From: Omnitrophica bacterium GWA2_41_15
Lineage (GTDB): Bacteria; Omnitrophota; Gorgyraeia; Gygaellales; UBA12090
DNA length: 64,000 nt
Direction of reading: 5' to 3'
NCBI GenBank assembly: GCA_919902675.1
Contig: CAKKRH010000007.1
Location: 12,942-76,941 of the forward strand
Under the pieces are notes generated by a model. The model made no database searches. It saw only the letters and a list, made by a program, of their open reading frames with translations, and was not told the DNA's origin. This document shows, in pieces, positions 35,410 through 42,487 of the stretch (positions within the stretch are counted from its first letter, which is position 1; the number at the start of each line of letters is the position of its first letter). Both the position numbers and the translations under genes were made by a program.

Positions 35410-35430
35410 TTGCATTTGGCGCGCTACAAT
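35403..35430 (+). promoter_or_regulatory. promoter candidate for the O-antigen-ligase-like gene (short or no leader)
   Basis: Plus strand reads TTGACA (35403-35408), a 16-nt spacer, then TACAAT (35425-35430). The ATG at 35440 is only 9 nt downstream. Confidence 0.5.
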
Positions 35431-35439
35431 TTAAGGATA

Positions 35440-36720
35440 ATGTTTTACGCCATACTCTTATTTATCTTTTACCGGCCCTTTATCTCTTCTTTGTCCTTCC
35501 CGGTTTTAAATTCAGCCTATTCCACCATCTTTCTGCTTTTTCTAATCATCTGGACTATCCTGAAACGCGAAGGCATACAAAAAAACCTCCCGGCAAAACT
35601 AAAGCCACCGCTCATACTCTTCATCCTGTCTCTTATTGTTTCAACCTTATTTTCTCAAAACAAAACCCATAGCCTCCAGGAATTCCCGCAATATCTCATC
35701 GGCCTACTGCTGTTTATGCTCCCGTTCTCATTATCGCCTAAAAACAAAAAGCTCGTCCTTTCAGCCATTATCCTTGCCGGATTAGGCATAAGCCTGCTGG
35801 CTATTTACCAGTATTTATTTGGCTTTGAATATATCCTTGATTATTTAGCCAAAGAAAACACTCCTTCCGCCGGCCTCATCACTTACCTTAGCCAAAGACG
35901 GGCCTTCCTGCCTTTTATCAGCCCAAATACCTTAGCCGGATACCTGATAATGATTATACCCCTAAGCCTGGCCTTTAAAAAGCGGATTTTCTTCATTTTA
36001 CCCCTGGGGCTAGCTTTATTACTCACCAAATCCTTAGGAGCGCTTTTTAGCCTATTCATAGGATCAATGCTATACTTTTACCTAAATAACCAAAAGGGCA
36101 GGCGGAAAATTGCCCTACTTTGCGGTTTCTCGGTGATTATCCTGCTGATTTTTCTTCTTCGCCAAAATAGCGGCTCTCAATTCAACCAACCCGGATTCTC
36201 ATTGCTAAGGCGCTGGGATTATTGGAAGGAAACTGTTGAAATTATAAAGCTTTTCCCCTTTTTGGGGGTGGGATTGGGGGCTCTACATCTCAGCCAGGTC
36301 AGATATGCCCACAACTGCTATTTGCAAATCTGGGCGGAGATGGGAATATTCGGAATCGCTTCTTTCTTTTGGTTGATAGCTGAAACCTATAGTTTAATCA
36401 ATCCTTCGACACCACGGTCTAAAGACCGTGGTTTGCTCAGGATTGATACTGAGAGCGGCGTAACCTTTCCCCGCCCTAAAGGGCGGGGTTTGAACGCCGC
36501 CGAATGTATCAAACGCGATTTTCTAAACAAAAAAAATATTTCTGTATTATCTGCCGCGATATTCACCTTTATCATCCATAATCTGGTTGATTTTACTTTT
36601 TCTCTGCCTGAAACAAGTTTCATCTGGTGGATAATCTTCGGTACCTACATCTCTCTCCATGAGCCTAAAACTACCGCAACATTTGTTGACGGCGGGGGTG
36701 TGCCCGTAACCCTCAGCTGA
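35440..36720 (+). CDS. O-antigen ligase/polymerase-family membrane protein (Wzy_C-like) carrying an in-frame repeat-element insertion
   Basis: Polytopic protein. YAHNCYLQIWAEMGIFG matches the O-antigen-ligase-domain core. The frame stays open through the 36396-36513 element, and TM-like sequence resumes after it (AAIFTFIIHNLVDFTFSLPETSFIWWIIFG). The track start at 35410 is a TTG. Confidence 0.7.
   Translation: MFYAILLFIFYRPFISSLSFPVLNSAYSTIFLLFLIIWTILKREGIQKNLPAKLKPPLILFILSLIVSTLFSQNKTHSLQEFPQYLIGLLLFMLPFSLSPKNKKLVLSAIILAGLGISLLAIYQYLFGFEYILDYLAKENTPSAGLITYLSQRRAFLPFISPNTLAGYLIMIIPLSLAFKKRIFFILPLGLALLLTKSLGALFSLFIGSMLYFYLNNQKGRRKIALLCGFSVIILLIFLLRQNSGSQFNQPGFSLLRRWDYWKETVEIIKLFPFLGVGLGALHLSQVRYAHNCYLQIWAEMGIFGIASFFWLIAETYSLINPSTPRSKDRGLLRIDTESGVTFPRPKGRGLNAAECIKRDFLNKKNISVLSAAIFTFIIHNLVDFTFSLPETSFIWWIIFGTYISLHEPKTTATFVDGGGVPVTLS
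36396..36513 (+). mobile_element. structured repeat element, copy B, inserted in frame in a coding sequence
   Basis: Near-identical (one 1-nt indel) to the reverse complement of 11536-11652. It is translated as about 39 residues, ...NPSTPRSKDRGLLRIDTESGVTFPRPKGRGLNAAECIK..., between hydrophobic segments. Confidence 0.75.
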
Positions 36721-37127
36721 ATTCTCCTCACCGCTATCACAGCGTTTGAGGCATCCAAGACTTCGCCGGTAGCATCAATTATTCTCTCCCCTGTCCCGAG
36801 GCTCACGATATACCTATACCTCCCGCTTCCCATAGACACATTCGTGGAACTGGTTGTGCCGGAGTTAGTTCTGGCCCAGGCCTTGGCCTCTTCAATGCCC
36901 GCCTGGGCTAAATAAAAAGCTGATTGACTGTTCTTTTCTAAGGAGCGCACCTGTATTTCCACATGCCACAAAGAGGCCAAAACAGCCGTTATGACTACCG
37001 CGACCACAAAGAAAAATAAAACAAGCATGAGAATCTGTCCGCTCTTTGCGTTGTTAAGCGACGCGCGGTTAAACTTGCTTTTTGTTCTAGAATTTCTAAT
37101 AGAAATAAAACTTTTTCTCGTTCTCAA
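36645..37127 (-). CDS. PilX-N-like pilus minor component
   Basis: One N-terminal TM (ILMLVLFFFVVAVVITAVL) is followed by SAFYLAQAGIEEA, the pattern seen in PilX N-terminal domains. The start overlaps the upstream ORF by 4 nt (ATGA). Confidence 0.55.
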   Translation of the reverse strand: MRTRKSFISIRNSRTKSKFNRASLNNAKSGQILMLVLFFFVVAVVITAVLASLWHVEIQVRSLEKNSQSAFYLAQAGIEEAKAWARTNSGTTSSTNVSMGSGRYRYIVSLGTGERIIDATGEVLDASNAVIAVRRIQLRVTGTPPPSTNVAVVLGSWREM

Positions 37128-37378
37128 TTTTGATACTCCATGGAAAGAAGTGTGAAATTAGAAGTCCAGCGGGCGATGCCTTTAGAGACGCGGAATTCGT
37201 CTATTTGACCATTCAAACAATTGCCTGTTCCATTAGCCCCTGCTCCAATAAATAATGAGGCTGAAAAATCAGGCACAGCATCAGCATCGCTTTCATCGGT
37301 CCCCAAGTGTTTCTCATTCACAAATATTTTCCAAGTACCTCCATTATCTATGATGACGACATGATACCAAACACTCAC
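37124..37378 (-). pseudogene. C-terminal half of a LamG (concanavalin-like lectin) domain; probable remnant
   Basis: WYHVVIIDNGGTWKIFVNEKHLG...LNGQIDEFRVSKGIARW covers only the second half of a LamG fold. It opens with GTG and is preceded in the same frame by TAA-AAG-TAA. Confidence 0.5.
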
Positions 37379-37438
37379 AATTTGGAATTGGTAGAAGCAT
37401 AAAACTATGAGTTGTGGAGCGATGTCCCGTGCTTACTT

Positions 37439-38110
37439 TTACTGGAAAGAAGAGACTTGACCCTCTGCCATTTCGTCGGCACTTAATACACGGTTAAAAA
37501 CAGCTACCTCATCAATGATGCCGTCGAATGTTGCTGCTCCGTTCTGCTGGTTACCAATAATAAGGGGTTGCGTGTCATCTGCCCGAGAGGCGCCGGTTTC
37601 ATTTTGAGTAACTTTATATGCAAGCTCAACACCGTTTTTATAGATATGTACATTGCTAGCGCTAGTAGACCCATCCCATGTTACCACCATGTACTGCCAA
37701 GTGTTAAAGGAAACTGTATTGTCGGCTGTTGATCTTTTCAAATCAGTATCGCCTTCTTTATAAAAAGTGAACGCATTAACCTCTGGAGCAGTGTTGTCTA
37801 TGGTAAAGGTCCAAAATCCAACATCACCCCAATTAATAGCATTCTTACAAATAATCCTACCACCACCTCCCTCTCCTGCGCTTCTTGGATAAATCCAGGC
37901 TGAAATTGTGATCGGCACAATGTTGTTCAATGTAGATGGATTTCCTACATAAGCATAATCATCCACCCCATTAAAATCCCTGGCCCCGCCAAATTTGCCA
38001 GCCACCACGGTGGTTCCACTCGCCGTAGCATTGTTGGCGTTGACGGTTGAGTCGTATAATGTCGGGCTAGTTTCCTCAAAATGCCAGAGGCCGACGGCGT
38101 TAGCGTTAGC
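37439..38110 (-). CDS. LamG-domain protein; the open frame begins right after the upstream gene's TGA and has no start codon until GTG at 38008
   Basis: FNGVDDYAYVG...ITISAWIYP...WQYMVVTWDG...FDGIIDEVAVFNRVLSADEM is a full LamG_3-type domain. The 34 codons upstream of the tracked GTG (ANANAVGLWHFEETSPTLYDSTVNANNATASGTT) look like the domain's usual first strand. Confidence 0.6.
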   Translation of the reverse strand, partial: ANANAVGLWHFEETSPTLYDSTVNANNATASGTTVVAGKFGGARDFNGVDDYAYVGNPSTLNNIVPITISAWIYPRSAGEGGGGRIICKNAINWGDVGFWTFTIDNTAPEVNAFTFYKEGDTDLKRSTADNTVSFNTWQYMVVTWDGSTSASNVHIYKNGVELAYKVTQNETGASRADDTQPLIIGNQQNGAATFDGIIDEVAVFNRVLSADEMAEGQVSSFQ

Positions 38111-38617
38111 TCAATTCCTGGGACGCGCCTTACTTTTCAGGGTGCAGAAGCGAGTGCCCTTGCGCACGGTAAGCTCGATACTGACTAAATTATTACCGGC
38201 AACGCTAAAGACTGAGTTGGTGTTAGCGACAAGATTGACCAATTCCTTTTTGGAGCTTGAGGAGTTGGCGGATGATAAATTCGCGCCCACACCGCGGAAT
38301 ATAAAGCCGCTATTGCCGTATCCCCCGCCGTCTCCCCGCCAATAAAACACAAGCTCGGTGTCGGCTACCAGCGGCGAACTAAAACATATCCCGTCTATGC
38401 CGACTGTGTTAACCGTGGAATTACGAGCCCGCCTGATTTCATTTACCATAGACTCCATTGCCCAACGGACATTATTAAACAGCTCTATGCCGGACTTTTG
38501 CTTTAGCCAGGCCTGCTGAATTGAGACTAAAGCCATAATTACCGCCAGGGCCACAAAAGTAAGTATGGTAATAGCCACCATCATCTCAATCAGGGTAGTT
38601 CCCCTTTTATTTCGCAT
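38111..38617 (-). CDS. pseudopilin with prepilin-type N-terminal methylation motif (PilW/GspJ-like)
   Basis: MRNKRGTTLIEMMVAITILTFVALAV is a class III signal peptide plus hydrophobic helix with Glu at position +5. Confidence 0.7.
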   Translation of the reverse strand: MRNKRGTTLIEMMVAITILTFVALAVIMALVSIQQAWLKQKSGIELFNNVRWAMESMVNEIRRARNSTVNTVGIDGICFSSPLVADTELVFYWRGDGGGYGNSGFIFRGVGANLSSANSSSSKKELVNLVANTNSVFSVAGNNLVSIELTVRKGTRFCTLKSKARPRN

Positions 38618-38620
38618 TAT

Positions 38621-39103
38621 TTAATAATTAGCTTTTAAAGAATAAGCGGAAAAACTCCCCCCGCTCCAGGATACGGTCGCATTGAGCTGCTTAAGAGGAG
38701 TTGAAGCATACAGCGGCCCATCGGTAATTGTCAAGACACAGCTATAGATAATACTATTAATGGTGCTAGATGGATATGCGTATGTCCCATTTGTCACTAT
38801 TCCGTCAGAGACGCCATCCAGCGCGTCCAAAGCTGACCATGAGCTGTATTCCTCCAACATCTGCCTGGCCAAACTACAAGCGCCGATATACTTCATACTC
38901 TTGGTGTTGGCGCCATACCCCTGGCTGATGATCTGTATGGTGTAGACAAAGAATAAAGACATTAACGTGATCCCCACTATAGTCTCAAAAACACTAAACC
39001 CCCAAACCTTTTTTCTGGCTAAGCTTTTAATGCTCTTAAAAGGTTTGAGGGCTGATTTTCTATTTCCGGGTATTGTCTGCTTTATAGCTAAAGGCGCAAC
39101 CAT
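38621..39103 (-). CDS. pseudopilin (PilV/GspI-like)
   Basis: A long leader precedes GFSVFETIVGITLMSLFFV, a prepilin cleavage/methylation-type segment. Confidence 0.6.
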   Translation of the reverse strand: MVAPLAIKQTIPGNRKSALKPFKSIKSLARKKVWGFSVFETIVGITLMSLFFVYTIQIISQGYGANTKSMKYIGACSLARQMLEEYSSWSALDALDGVSDGIVTNGTYAYPSSTINSIIYSCVLTITDGPLYASTPLKQLNATVSWSGGSFSAYSLKANY

Positions 39104-39157
39104 ATGATAGACATTATTCCAAGAATTATACTGCCGGCGGTTGTTCCGATTTAGAAA

Positions 39158-39631
39158 TCATTCTATCTTGGTGTAACCGGTATCATAATACACCGTGATA
39201 TTCTTTGTCTTCCCCTGATTTTCTAAAGAAAAACTGCTGACGGCCCCGCCGCTTCCGTTTTCCGCGTATATATTGCCCCGGGGAGAATAAATCCAGAGGT
39301 TTACCCGCGCCAACTGCAGCGATACTTTCATCATCACATCTTTTAAAAGATTTTCCGCCGTTAAATCCGCGGATGTTCCGGTAGGCGACTTATACACAGA
39401 ATATTTACTGGGAACAGCATTAGTGAAGACCACCGCGTGCCCTGCGTTAGTAGCCACAGTCCTTTGCCTGGCCCAGGAGATATCGCTTACGGCCTTTCTG
39501 GTCTCCGCGTCCAGAATTAAAGAACGCAGGCTGTTAACCGCGACCACGGTTGTTCCGGCCATCGTAGCCACGATTACCAAAACTACCATGGTTTCCGCCA
39601 GGGTGAAACTGCGGCGTTCTTTCTTTACCAT
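39158..39631 (-). CDS. pseudopilin (GspH/FimT-like)
   Basis: KERRSFTLAETMVVLVIVATMAG is a prepilin-type N-terminus. Size and position fit GspH/FimT-type minor pilins. Confidence 0.6.
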   Translation of the reverse strand: MVKKERRSFTLAETMVVLVIVATMAGTTVVAVNSLRSLILDAETRKAVSDISWARQRTVATNAGHAVVFTNAVPSKYSVYKSPTGTSADLTAENLLKDVMMKVSLQLARVNLWIYSPRGNIYAENGSGGAVSSFSLENQGKTKNITVYYDTGYTKIE

Positions 39632-39645
39632 GAAAGAGCCTTTCT

Positions 39646-40185
39646 TTAGTTAACCTCGCCATCCCGGGAAACCAAAATATTCACGGTATAAGCGCTTCCG
39701 ACGGGGATGTAACGGACCCATCCGCTTGAGGCATTAAGCGTGATATCTATAAAGCGGTCCAACCTTTGGGCGTCAGCTAAAGGCACGCTGGTTATAGAAA
39801 TATACCTCTCTCCCGCGAGTGATAAATTAAAGTTTGCCCCTGAAGACAAGCTATACCAGGCGTATGTGCCTCCCCAGGGATCAGCAACCTGCCAGCGATC
39901 TAAATATGGACCATCCCAGGTTGCCGATATGCTGCCACCCGGATCTACCATAAAATCCGCTCCGGTAGCAGATGTTGCCGGCCATACTTTATTATCGGAA
40001 AAATAAGCTACTGCCGCGTTCTTGACTGCCCCATAAAACTTCTCAACCGCGGAGGTCTTTCCCTTGTTTATATTCCGGTAAATCTGAGGAAGCACGCCCA
40101 CAGCCAAAGCAGCCAATACCGCGATAACCACCATTAATTCTATTAAGGAAAAACCATTATGCTGATGCGCGCTACGATACATCAT
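39646..40185 (-). CDS. type IV pilin / GspG-like pilin, paralog 2
   Basis: NGFSLIELMVVIAVLAALAV (G|F cleavage site, E+5). It shares DGPYLDRWQ...PWGG with the neighbouring pilin. Confidence 0.75.
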   Translation of the reverse strand: MMYRSAHQHNGFSLIELMVVIAVLAALAVGVLPQIYRNINKGKTSAVEKFYGAVKNAAVAYFSDNKVWPATSATGADFMVDPGGSISATWDGPYLDRWQVADPWGGTYAWYSLSSGANFNLSLAGERYISITSVPLADAQRLDRFIDITLNASSGWVRYIPVGSAYTVNILVSRDGEVN

Positions 40186-40191
40186 AGAAAA

Positions 40192-40677
40192 TTAACTTAC
40201 CGGGCCATCACGGGAAACCAAAATAGACAAAGTAGTTCCGCTATAACGGACCCATCCCGTAGTTGCACCAGATGTACCATCCGTATGCAAATCTATCCTT
40301 GCGGAATCCGCGGCTGGCACGAGAGTAGCCGTAATATACCTTTCTCCGGCAGAAGCGCCAAAAGTTGTACCGGTTTGATTAACCCAAGTAAATACCCCAC
40401 CCCAAGGATTAGTTGATTGCCAGCGATCAAGATACGGCCCGTCCCAAGTCGCGGCTCCGGTTGTAATCAGAAAACCATTAGTATCTGCCGGCCAAGACAT
40501 ATTATCCGAATAAAAACTAGTGGCCCCAGTCTTTACTGCCGCGTAAAATTGTTCGCAGGCGGCGGTTTTGCCCTTATTTATCTGCCGGAAAACCTGAGGC
40601 GAAATAACCGCCAATAACACCCCGATAATAGCAATAACCACCATTAACTCAATTAAAGTAAAAGCCTTCTTCATCAT
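40192..40677 (-). CDS. type IV pilin / GspG-like pilin, paralog 1 (likely major subunit)
   Basis: MMKKAFTLIELMVVIAIIGVLLAV. It is the first pilin after pilB, and AAGGAGG precedes its start. The -1 residue is Ala rather than Gly. Confidence 0.75.
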   Translation of the reverse strand: MMKKAFTLIELMVVIAIIGVLLAVISPQVFRQINKGKTAACEQFYAAVKTGATSFYSDNMSWPADTNGFLITTGAATWDGPYLDRWQSTNPWGGVFTWVNQTGTTFGASAGERYITATLVPAADSARIDLHTDGTSGATTGWVRYSGTTLSILVSRDGPVS

Positions 40678-40810
40678 CTTTTGTTACCTCCTTTTCATTT
40701 CCTGATTAATAAAATTATGCCGGCTCACTAAGGAAAATGCAACTCGTTATGGTAAATTTGCCTATGTAAAGCATATCACATCTTCACCTCCTTTTCAAGG
40801 CTGCCTATGG

Positions 40811-42487
40811 CTAACTCCCTGACTCTATAGTGATGCGAATTACCTCCTCAGCGCTAATCAGGCCGGACAACAACTTATCGACAGCTGTTTTTCTTAAGGT
40901 CTCCATTCCTTCTTTTATCGCGGCGAGACGAATCTCCTCCGCGGATGCCTTCCTTAACACCAAATCCTGAATAGCCGGACTTACGCAAAGCAGTTCAAAA
41001 ATGCCTACCCGCCCCTTGAAGCCGCTTTGAGCGCAATACTGACAGCCTTTTCCCCGGTTAAACTTTACCCCTTTAGCTATCATATTCTCCAGGCCAAGAG
41101 TCTTCAGCACTTCATCGCTGGGGATATACTCCTCCTTGCACTTATCACAAATTCGTCTGGCCAGCCTCTGGGCAAGCACTCCCAGTAAAGCGGAAGATAT
41201 TAAAAACGGCTCTATACCCATATTGATCAGACGGGTAAAAACGGTCGCGGCATCATTAGTATGTATGGTTGAAAACACAAGGTGTCCGGTTAAAGCGGAC
41301 TGCACCGCGATCTCCGCGGTCTCCCGGTCGCGTATTTCTCCCACCATAATAATATTAGGGTCCTGCCTTAAGAAAGAACGCACGGCCACGGCGAAGGTGA
41401 GGCCGGACTTAGGGTTCACGTGAACCTGGCGCATCCCAGGGAATTGATATTCCACGGGATCCTCCACGGTCATTATGTTTATATTCTCTTTATTAAGCAA
41501 TTGGAGGGCAGCGTATAAGGTGGTGGTCTTCCCGCTTCCGGTCGGGCCGGTAACCAGGATTATTCCGTAAGGAGAAGCGATTAACTCCTTGGATAAGCGC
41601 AATTCGCGCTCGGGAAAGCCCAGGGAATCCAAGGTTAAAGTAAGGCTGGATTTATCCAGGATCCTCAATACCACATTTTCTCCGTAAACCGTAGGGCAGG
41701 TGGAAACCCGGAAATCTATGTCCCGGTTACCTATCTTCATCATAATCCTGCCGTCCTGGGGCAGGCGCTTGTCGGCGATGTCTAATCCGGACATAATCTT
41801 AATCCGGGAAATAATCGCTCCGGCTAAATCTATAGACAGAGAGTAGTTCCGATGCAGCATGCCGTCAACGCGGTAACGGACATTCAAAATCCTCTTTTCC
41901 GGCTCAATATGTATATCGGAGGCCCTAAGCTGGACAGCCTGAAAAATCAGGTAATTAACAATTTTAACGATGGGCGCGTCCTCGCCCTTCTTTTCCATCT
42001 CCGCCAGCTTAGTCTTGTCTATTGAAGCGATGATTTCATCCAGACTACTGATGCCGCCAAAACACTGATCCTGGACCTTGCGGATTTCAAGCTCATCGGC
42101 AAAAACCGGATCAATAGTATAATGGGTCATTCGCCGCAATTCATCTATAATCATTACATTATTAGGCTCAGCCATAGCTATGGTGAGAATATTCTCAATC
42201 AGGAATACGGGAACAACCCTATACTTACGGGCGAAATCCTCCGGCACAAGCTTAAATACCTCAGGGCTGATGAGATAAGATGAAAGATTAAAAGCGGTAA
42301 CTCCGCTTTGTATAGACAGGTAGCGCTCGCGATCTTCAAGGTTAAGCCAGCCTTTGCGCACCAAAATCTCACCTATCTTTTCGCCGGTTTGCTTCTGCTC
42401 TTTTAATACCTCCTCAAGCTGAGACTCAAGAATCAGCCCCTGTTCCACCAGCACTTCGCCAATTTTCTTATTAATAATTATCGACAT
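40811..42487 (-). CDS. pilB: type IV pilus assembly ATPase (GspE/PilB family) with MshEN-type N-terminal domain
   Basis: 558-aa ORF. It has Walker A GPTGSGKTT, Asp/His boxes and a tetracysteine motif (CDKC...CQYC). The N-terminus has two 24-residue KIGExLV...G..L....L...L..Q motifs. Confidence 0.9.
   Translation of the reverse strand: MSIIINKKIGEVLVEQGLILESQLEEVLKEQKQTGEKIGEILVRKGWLNLEDRERYLSIQSGVTAFNLSSYLISPEVFKLVPEDFARKYRVVPVFLIENILTIAMAEPNNVMIIDELRRMTHYTIDPVFADELEIRKVQDQCFGGISSLDEIIASIDKTKLAEMEKKGEDAPIVKIVNYLIFQAVQLRASDIHIEPEKRILNVRYRVDGMLHRNYSLSIDLAGAIISRIKIMSGLDIADKRLPQDGRIMMKIGNRDIDFRVSTCPTVYGENVVLRILDKSSLTLTLDSLGFPERELRLSKELIASPYGIILVTGPTGSGKTTTLYAALQLLNKENINIMTVEDPVEYQFPGMRQVHVNPKSGLTFAVAVRSFLRQDPNIIMVGEIRDRETAEIAVQSALTGHLVFSTIHTNDAATVFTRLINMGIEPFLISSALLGVLAQRLARRICDKCKEEYIPSDEVLKTLGLENMIAKGVKFNRGKGCQYCAQSGFKGRVGIFELLCVSPAIQDLVLRKASAEEIRLAAIKEGMETLRKTAVDKLLSGLISAEEVIRITIESGS

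Follow-up and report, generated by a model that had tools for sequence, protein, structure and literature searches.

An in-frame TGA where the pilin natively ends divides a minor pilin gene from a lectin module in a pilus operon of Candidatus Omnitrophota

How does a minor pilin gene come to be followed, in its own reading frame, by a lectin domain and then by half of another, with nothing but stop codons in between? This arrangement was found in a stretch of 64,000 nucleotides (nt) from Omnitrophica bacterium GWA2_41_15 (contig CAKKRH010000007.1 of assembly GCA_919902675.1, positions 12,942 to 76,941), hereafter the window, in whose numbering all coordinates are given. Three open reading frames (ORFs) of the minus strand, 38617..38111, 38008..37439 and 37378..37124, lie in one frame and encode a pilin of 168 amino acids (aa), a LamG domain of 189 aa counted from a GTG and a LamG half of 84 aa. 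The shared frame and the intervening stops, first noticed in a sequence-only reading of the stretch, were confirmed from the coordinates and the translations, as was the absence of ATG, GTG or TTG from the 34 codons between the TGA and GTG 38008. That reading left a choice between readthrough of the first TGA, non-canonical initiation of the LamG module, and decay of an adhesin through a nonsense mutation and a deletion. Its description and its idea of an adhesin unit hold, but the history that emerged is a different one. The locus is best read as a modular minor pilin in a type IV pilus (T4P)- or type II secretion system (T2SS)-like operon of a groundwater bacterium of Candidatus Omnitrophota. 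On balance, and with moderate confidence, we favour the view that its lectin module has been uncoupled, and is silent, owing to a stop codon placed where the pilin natively ends, and that the 84-codon ORF is the relic of a displaced module.

The lectin and pilin features, all on the minus strand, are given below; L001-L003 are loci with fused pilin-LamG genes, L046 is a locus without LamG, and L014 holds a diverged second copy of the arrangement.

38111..38617, minus strand: minor (pseudo)pilin gene, 168 aa, ending in ...KARPRN-TGA, in the 'J-like' fifth pilin position of the operon
38111..38113, minus strand: in-frame TGA at the native pilin stop position, placed by DNA alignment; AGA or AGG (Arg) in fused relatives
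37442..38110, minus strand: LamG-B module of 223 open codons, by Pfam, AlphaFold2 and Foldseek a complete Laminin_G_3 / ConA-like jelly-roll
37433..37441, minus strand: TAA-AAG-TAA, double stop of module B itself, the same in L014
37376..37432, minus strand: spacer of ~57 nt that arrived with module B, near-identical in L014 and unalignable to L003
37124..37375, minus strand: relic of the displaced LamG-A, 3' half only, covered by the 84-codon ORF 37378-37124
36645..37127, minus strand: PilX-like (GspK-position) minor pilin gene with a TTG start and GGAG 8 nt upstream, syntenic in L002, L003 and L046

The best database matches were single pilin-LamG proteins, P0001 (379 aa), P0002 (392 aa) and P0003 (375 aa), whose pilin part is ~80% identical to that of the window. 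Their contigs are syntenic with the window and carry the ATPase, four pilin genes, the fusion and the PilX-like gene. The proposal that pilin and LamG form one adhesin unit is borne out by these three proteins, which are true fusions at the same operon position. Alignment of the orthologous loci, which had been suggested as a check, gave three syntenic loci that are fused and others that are free of LamG. The fused loci L001-L003 align to the window at ~81–84% nt identity, unbroken down to 38110-38114, and the codon at the position of the TGA is AGA or AGG. The common frame of the window ORFs is therefore not due to chance, since it is inherited from a fused gene that is still present in relatives.

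Beyond the junction, the A-type LamG of the relatives shows no BLASTP similarity to the LamG-B of the window, and nt homology restarts inside the 84-codon ORF, at 37370 for L003, 37204 for L002 and 37186 for L001. The C-terminal 83 residues of LamG-A from P0003 have 70% aa identity to this ORF by tblastn, and the ORF matches Pfam Laminin_G_3 over model positions 79-142 of 151 only (E 7.6e-9, 36.3 bits). Because both nt and aa homology to the LamG of the relatives resume there, the 84-codon ORF is identified as the 3' remnant of an A-type module. The break in homology to the relatives, followed by its return within the relic, indicates that module B, together with its own stops and the ~57-nt spacer, replaced the 5' half of A. 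In comparison with the intact orthologues P0001-P0003, the window gene is interrupted by the TGA and its relic is missing the 5' half of the domain, as expected of a pseudogene.

The position of the TGA is that at which pilins of this family end. An exhaustive HMMER search with the window pilin gave 234 relatives; the 148 representatives of the family had a median length of 182 aa, with R.RN within two residues of the C-terminus in 75 of them and a length above 260 aa in only three. At seven loci without LamG (L046, L047, L048, L049, L051, L052 and L053) the pilin ends in RPRN followed by TGA or TAA, and the PilX-like gene comes immediately afterwards. One of them, L046 from another Hainich well, is the closest relative of the window, with 90.5% nt identity over five pilin genes compared with ~81% for L001 and L003, and its pilin stops at the identical TGA with no LamG present. 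The module is therefore dispensable, being absent from seven loci that include this closest relative, and because the TGA stands at the family-wide native pilin end, the default product of the window gene is an ordinary member of the family. A first scan of genome contigs with close pilins as query gave no match, and a second scan gave four Omnitrophota or Planctomycetes loci.

The pilin carries a prepilin N-methylation motif (Pfam N_methyl, E 2.3e-7; 30.5 bits, cut-off 21.2), and its N-terminus, MRNKRG followed by TTLIEMMVAITIL, has the class III signal of modular type IV pilins. Similarity to GspJ and ComGE was weak (NCBIfam). The gene lies in a T4P/T2SS cluster among minor pilins, with the ATPase and four pilin genes upstream and the PilX-like gene downstream. 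What separates it from a modular type IV pilin is that the two moieties are not on one polypeptide, as they are in P0001-P0003, since the TGA at 38111-38113 intervenes. In another member of the pilin family, P0133 (338 aa), Cys-rich 'NLNTDEGNCGSCG' repeats are grafted straight after '...RPLN', the same terminal site as that used by LamG, which suggests that modules are grafted repeatedly at the pilin C-terminus.

The reading frame beyond RPRN and the stop codon begins ANANAVGLWHFEE, the junction being PRN-stop-ANANAVGLWHFEETSPTLYDSTVNANNATASGTTVVAGK, and its 223 codons are predicted to form a complete ConA-like lectin domain (PF13385). Pfam Laminin_G_3 was matched over model positions 2-149 of 151 (E 1.2e-23, 84.3 bits against 27.6). 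With 38 homologues as input, AlphaFold2 modelled the 223 residues as an all-beta jelly-roll with a mean predicted local distance difference test score (pLDDT) of 93.9, and Foldseek placed the model with probability 1.0 against the lectin-like domains of tetanus/botulinum toxin Hc, arabinanase domain 4 and trans-sialidase; a sequence search of the PDB with LamG-B gave no match. The 34 start-less codons belong to this fold, as the sequence-only reading had supposed, with two predicted strands (residues 5-10 and 28-31) lying ahead of GTG 38008, and with an NCBIfam TafC alignment that starts at residue 6 and runs to 215 (E 9.5e-11, far below the family cut-off). TafC is a subunit of haloarchaeal Tat-dependent fimbriae (PMC11821415), and is another filament subunit on the lectin fold matched by LamG-B. 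Within the module, DFNGVDDYAYVGNPSTLNNIVPITISAWIYPR would be a tryptic peptide.

LamG-B is closest, at 44-51% identity, to domains that lie inside larger LamG proteins which are not pilins. In protein word-index searches no pilin-B fusion with a sense codon, and no further copy of B, was found above 51% identity besides the L014 cluster; a scan of JGI metagenomes gave no further B relatives above 45%, and the 64-kb window held no other LamG-like sequence that could act as a silent cassette store. One protein of 391 aa (P0008) has a PilX-like N-terminus fused to a B-like LamG of 44% identity to LamG-B, and a different minor-pilin type therefore bears the same kind of lectin module.

Exchange of the module can be followed between strains that are otherwise almost the same. 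P0001 and P0003 have pilin parts that are 100% identical and LamG parts that are 41% identical, and their loci (L001 4904-6043 and L003 3649-4776) are 99.2% identical up to the pilin/LamG junction; on the aligned sequences this is a clean LamG module swap between near-identical strains. A-type LamG is a very large family of stand-alone proteins of ~227-235 aa (P0259-P0377), which start with M..D.YTKLLLH.DG and end with ISKGIARWT.NFTPP. This family matches LamG segments of phage baseplate-wedge and virion structural PHROGs, with E values down to 7e-44, and a phage receptor-binding origin of the pilin LamG module is possible. The sequence "ISKGIARWTSNFT" was considered as a locus-specific recombination handle and rejected, being a conserved motif of the entire stand-alone LamG-A family. 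No repeats able to drive phase variation were found, and just a 7-nt pair brackets the insert:

38110..38116, minus strand: AATTGAG, left copy of a 7-nt direct repeat which, with the right copy, flanks the entire LamG insert
37123..37129, minus strand: AATTGAG, right copy of the 7-nt direct repeat, where the relic ends and the PilX-like gene starts

Module B stands behind a TGA in both of its known copies, that of the window and that of L014. The L014 pilin has only ~50% aa identity to the window pilin, and is followed in the same order by ARPRN-TGA, the B module, TAA-AAG-TAA, the spacer and an A relic. Across window positions 38122-37291 the two loci are 94.1% identical without a gap, compared with ~72% or no alignment over the rest of the operon. 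From this near-identity behind pilins that are so dissimilar, B must have moved between lineages, and probably the entire TGA-B-relic block with it. The 34 codons ahead of the GTG are conserved at 29 of 34 positions in L014, and the TGA is kept. The relics have gone separate ways: that of L014 has lost 66 nt through a deletion and carries an additional stop, and that of the window shows lineage-specific non-conservative changes.

In a small clade, the LamG module, a ConA-like lectin, thus lies between the pilin and the PilX-like gene and passes from strain to strain as a cassette. In the three relatives in which it is fused via an Arg codon, the product would be an adhesin exposed at the pilus tip. 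We propose that, in the lineage of the window, a B-type LamG that came in with its own stops and 3' spacer replaced the 5' half of the resident A, of which the 3' half is left as the relic. The codon joining the pilin to B is TGA, at which the ribosome would terminate at the natural C-terminus of the pilin, and the 168-aa minor pilin so released could still serve in pilus priming. LamG-B would then be essentially untranslated, silent and not yet decayed. That it goes untranslated is our inference, as is the origin of the TGA as a one-step change from AGA, selected as the only stop position that restores a pilin of native length. LamG-B appears to have no expression route of its own, because no start precedes GTG 38008, a start at that GTG drops two strands of the fold, and no AGGAGG-like motif precedes it. 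Relatives that use LamG join it to the pilin by a sense codon, the frame past the stop is empty at other loci of the family, and decay is visible right beside B in the A relic, with its deletion and extra stop in L014 and its non-conservative changes in the window. Of the three earlier options, decay by nonsense mutation and deletion comes closest, although the route was different: the 5' half of A was displaced by an imported B, and the TGA stands at the native end of the pilin.

Several properties of B weigh against a silent module. Its 223-codon frame is open in both copies at 4.6% divergence, for which the chance probability with 31 substitutions is P ~0.35, and it holds fewer amino-acid changes than expected from a neutral simulation (P ~0.025). 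The divergence of 4.6% in B is lower than the 11% of the adjacent spacer and relic (Fisher P 0.001), a comparison that is not clean, as the relic may have a separate history and B against the spacer alone gives P 0.23. The two copies show 10.5 synonymous and 20.5 non-synonymous differences with codon-position counts of 11/7/13, giving an omega of 0.55, which for two sequences is not significantly below 1 (binomial P 0.07-0.14); the pattern lies between neutrality and constraint, and as a relaxed one it also speaks for silence. The block as a whole is 94% identical across lineages whose pilins are only ~50% identical, and the spread of the block, or at least of B, by recombination would be more readily understood if B had a function. 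These points bear most directly on functional readthrough of the UGA, in which the gene would give mostly plain pilin and, by near-cognate Trp insertion, a small fraction of pilin-LamG-B as a substoichiometric tip adhesin. We regard this as possible but doubtful. UGA is the leakiest bacterial stop codon, the frame is exact, the LamG fold begins five residues past the stop with a linker geometry like that of the fused relatives, and L014 retains the stop, the start-less codons and the open frame behind a very different pilin, with B changing 2.4 times more slowly than its flank. Loss of conservation in the upstream 34 codons had been named beforehand as a result that would tell against readthrough, and the 29 of 34 codons and the stop kept in L014 leave the idea standing on this point. 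The in-frame, start-less coding extension expected of programmed readthrough is present, but a stimulatory context or dedicated machinery was not found. The sequence downstream of the TGA forms no stable structure (fold z 0.46), and an Rfam search gave no SECIS (selenocysteine insertion sequence) or other match, so that selenocysteine insertion and structured recoding were rejected. No suppressor tRNA is encoded in the window, which has only two tRNA-Pro genes, the tRNA-Trp and RF2 genes lying outside it. TGA is a normal stop in this genome, the LamG-using relatives simply carry a sense codon, seven other family loci are empty in frame after the stop, and the selection signal is weak and comes from two sequences that may share the TGA by descent or may each have retained it as the native stop; readthrough at background level would yield very little product. 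The more far-reaching version, in which the TGA is deliberately leaky so that a single gene makes mostly plain pilin and a small, tunable fraction of pilin-LamG-B, thereby setting the stoichiometry of a tip adhesin that binds hosts or surfaces, and in which TGA-B spreads as a functional unit, is considered unlikely. Were it true, the Qbeta A1 readthrough protein would have a counterpart in pilus biology, encoded on a bacterial chromosome.

The spread of B between lineages and its mildly constrained omega could also be explained if B had arrived as a sense-codon fusion and AGA had changed to TGA separately in the window and in L014, which is a variant of the favoured explanation by uncoupling. 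On this view the module can be shed cleanly only by a stop placed exactly where the pilin natively ends. The change is of a single base and the position of the native end is strongly constrained in the family, but the same mutation is needed twice and none of the collections searched contained B joined through a sense codon; parallel loss in this form is quite improbable. Far less credible is a separate LamG-B gene starting at GTG 38008 (TTG/GTG in L014), which is how NCBI and gene callers annotate it. All assemblies do have a called ORF of 188-189 aa, annotated as MEK6563847.1, and a GTG or TTG is found at that place in both copies. Such a start would nevertheless remove two strands of a confidently predicted jelly-roll and a region that TafC aligns from residue 6, the sequence ahead of the GTG (gcgagtggaaccacc) has no AGGAGG-like motif, and L014 has preserved the 34 codons before it as coding sequence. 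The ORF opens with mature LamG sequence and, having neither signal nor prepilin leader, would leave the lectin in the cytoplasm. Non-canonical initiation of LamG, one of the options raised at the outset, is poorly supported on the same grounds of lost strands, a missing ribosome-binding site in gcgagtggaaccacc and a missing leader. Promoter and terminator searches between the ORFs gave only weak consensus matches and nothing at the junctions.

An artefact of sequencing or assembly, or a genome-wide reassignment of TGA, has a negligible probability. The region is 100% identical across at least nine independent assemblies, one of which (ERZ1292622) has 98x coverage, and the stops are therefore not sequencing errors. 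Both junctions are 100% identical in the ERZ1292622, ERZ1292618, ERZ1292617, SRR24529257, SRR24529256, ERR2809146 and ERR3858127 loci, and the NCBI records MEK6563848.1 and MEK6563847.1, from a Candidatus Omnitrophota metagenome-assembled genome, are these same proteins. Reassignment is ruled out by the 55 long ORFs of the window, which are unbroken, and of which 15 end in TGA as an ordinary stop.

Two further loci show local differences from the window. L013 (ERZ1286166 contig_28, 2.155 Mb) is a contig that comes close to the length of the genome, from the same strain, with a secretin upstream of the operon, in which the ATPase, pilin and LamG-B genes are each broken into two ORFs; the pattern is typical of long-read indel errors, and the split genes were not taken as real decay. 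L006, from the 0.1 um fraction of Hainich H52, matches the window exactly along 2.6 kb apart from nine substitutions within 50 nt (window 38942-38992) inside the minor-pilin gene 38621-39103, a cluster that looks like a short recombination tract or microdiversity in this neighbouring minor pilin.

The upstream part of the operon (38621..42487) holds the remaining pilus genes:

40811-42487, minus strand: T2SS/T4P ATPase, by Pfam
40192-40677, 39646-40185, 39158-39631 and 38621-39103, minus strand: four pilin-like genes with weak NCBIfam GspG, GspH and ComG matches

The order G-like, G-like, H-like, I-like, pilin and PilX-like is that of T2SS/T4P systems with the tip minor pilins GspJ/PilW and GspK/PilX, and weak GspJ and GspK profile matches agree with it. 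Scores are nevertheless far below the cut-offs, and the J assignment is by position only. At the downstream end, the PilX-like gene overlaps the 84-codon ORF by TTGA (TTG 37127-37125, TGA 37126-37124), and not by the ATGA first reported. Its leader is ~25 codons longer in the LamG-bearing loci (window, L002 and L003) than in those without LamG (window 37034-37127 against L046 2818-2860, and L049, L051, L052 and L053), and part of the PilX 5' end seems to move along with the LamG insert. At its 3' end it is met by a converging gene for a Wzy_C / O-antigen-ligase-like membrane protein (35410-36720, plus strand), with an overlap of ~75 nt. A family-2 glycosyltransferase gene comes next after the Wzy_C-like gene, and surface-glycan genes directly adjoin the pilus operon.

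Modular type IV pilins with ConA-like/PF13385 modules are already known, and the relatives P0001-P0003 belong to that kind. Examples are PilC and PilB (pilin and vWA) of Streptococcus sanguinis (Raynaud et al. 2021, PMC8179133; Shahin et al. 2023, PMC9934059). PilC, in which a pilin is joined to a ConA-like lectin, binds glycans and has been modelled at the pilus tip (PMC9934059), and PF13385 is among the modules frequently grafted on pilins (PMC8179133). The Omnitrophota genes resemble these modular pilins in having a small pilin moiety with a class III signal and a grafted ConA-like/PF13385 module, encoded among minor pilins, and P0001-P0003 fit fully. In the window the moieties are separated by a stop and the default product is not modular; the organism is an uncultured member of the Omnitrophota, the lectin differs from one near-identical strain to another, and a displaced relic remains. 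It is these last aspects, the strain-level swapping of lectin modules, the displaced relic and the recurring TGA-separated arrangement, that appear to be new.

The polymorphic toxin loci Rhs and CdiA undergo displacement of C-terminal modules that leaves 'orphan' remnants, and Neisseria pilE is accompanied by silent pilS cassettes. The window shares with these a conserved N-terminal carrier, a recombining C-terminal module and a start-less 3' fragment left downstream. It differs in that no immunity gene, cassette array, guanine-quadruplex or dedicated recombination signal was seen, there is one relic only, and exchange appears to take place between strains and not within the genome. Among readthrough systems, Qbeta A1 is an extension of the coat by UGA readthrough and a minor structural protein, and an amber bypass has reportedly been described for the CS3 pili of enterotoxigenic Escherichia coli (ETEC). 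Here too a structural subunit gene is followed by a stop and then by an in-frame receptor-binding extension with no start of its own, the leakiness of the window stop being a proposal only. The window differs from both in having no conserved stimulatory element and in having close relatives that fuse the two parts by a sense codon.

For those who use the deposited sequences, the 188-aa "LamG domain-containing protein" calls for caution, as it is almost certainly not a free-standing protein. The loci together provide a natural series for the gain and loss of modules in modular pilins, from no module through a fused module to a stop-separated module with a relic. If the stop were leaky by design, the gene would be one of the rare bacterial chromosomal genes with functional readthrough. 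Omnitrophota are ultra-small and probably host-dependent; it has been proposed that they attach to hosts by T4P, and Laminin_G_3 is found among the domains of their giant putative adhesins (PMC10066038). Swapping of lectin modules, combined with a clean switch-off by a stop at the native pilin end, suggests a fast turnover of attachment specificity, as is expected at a host or prey interface.

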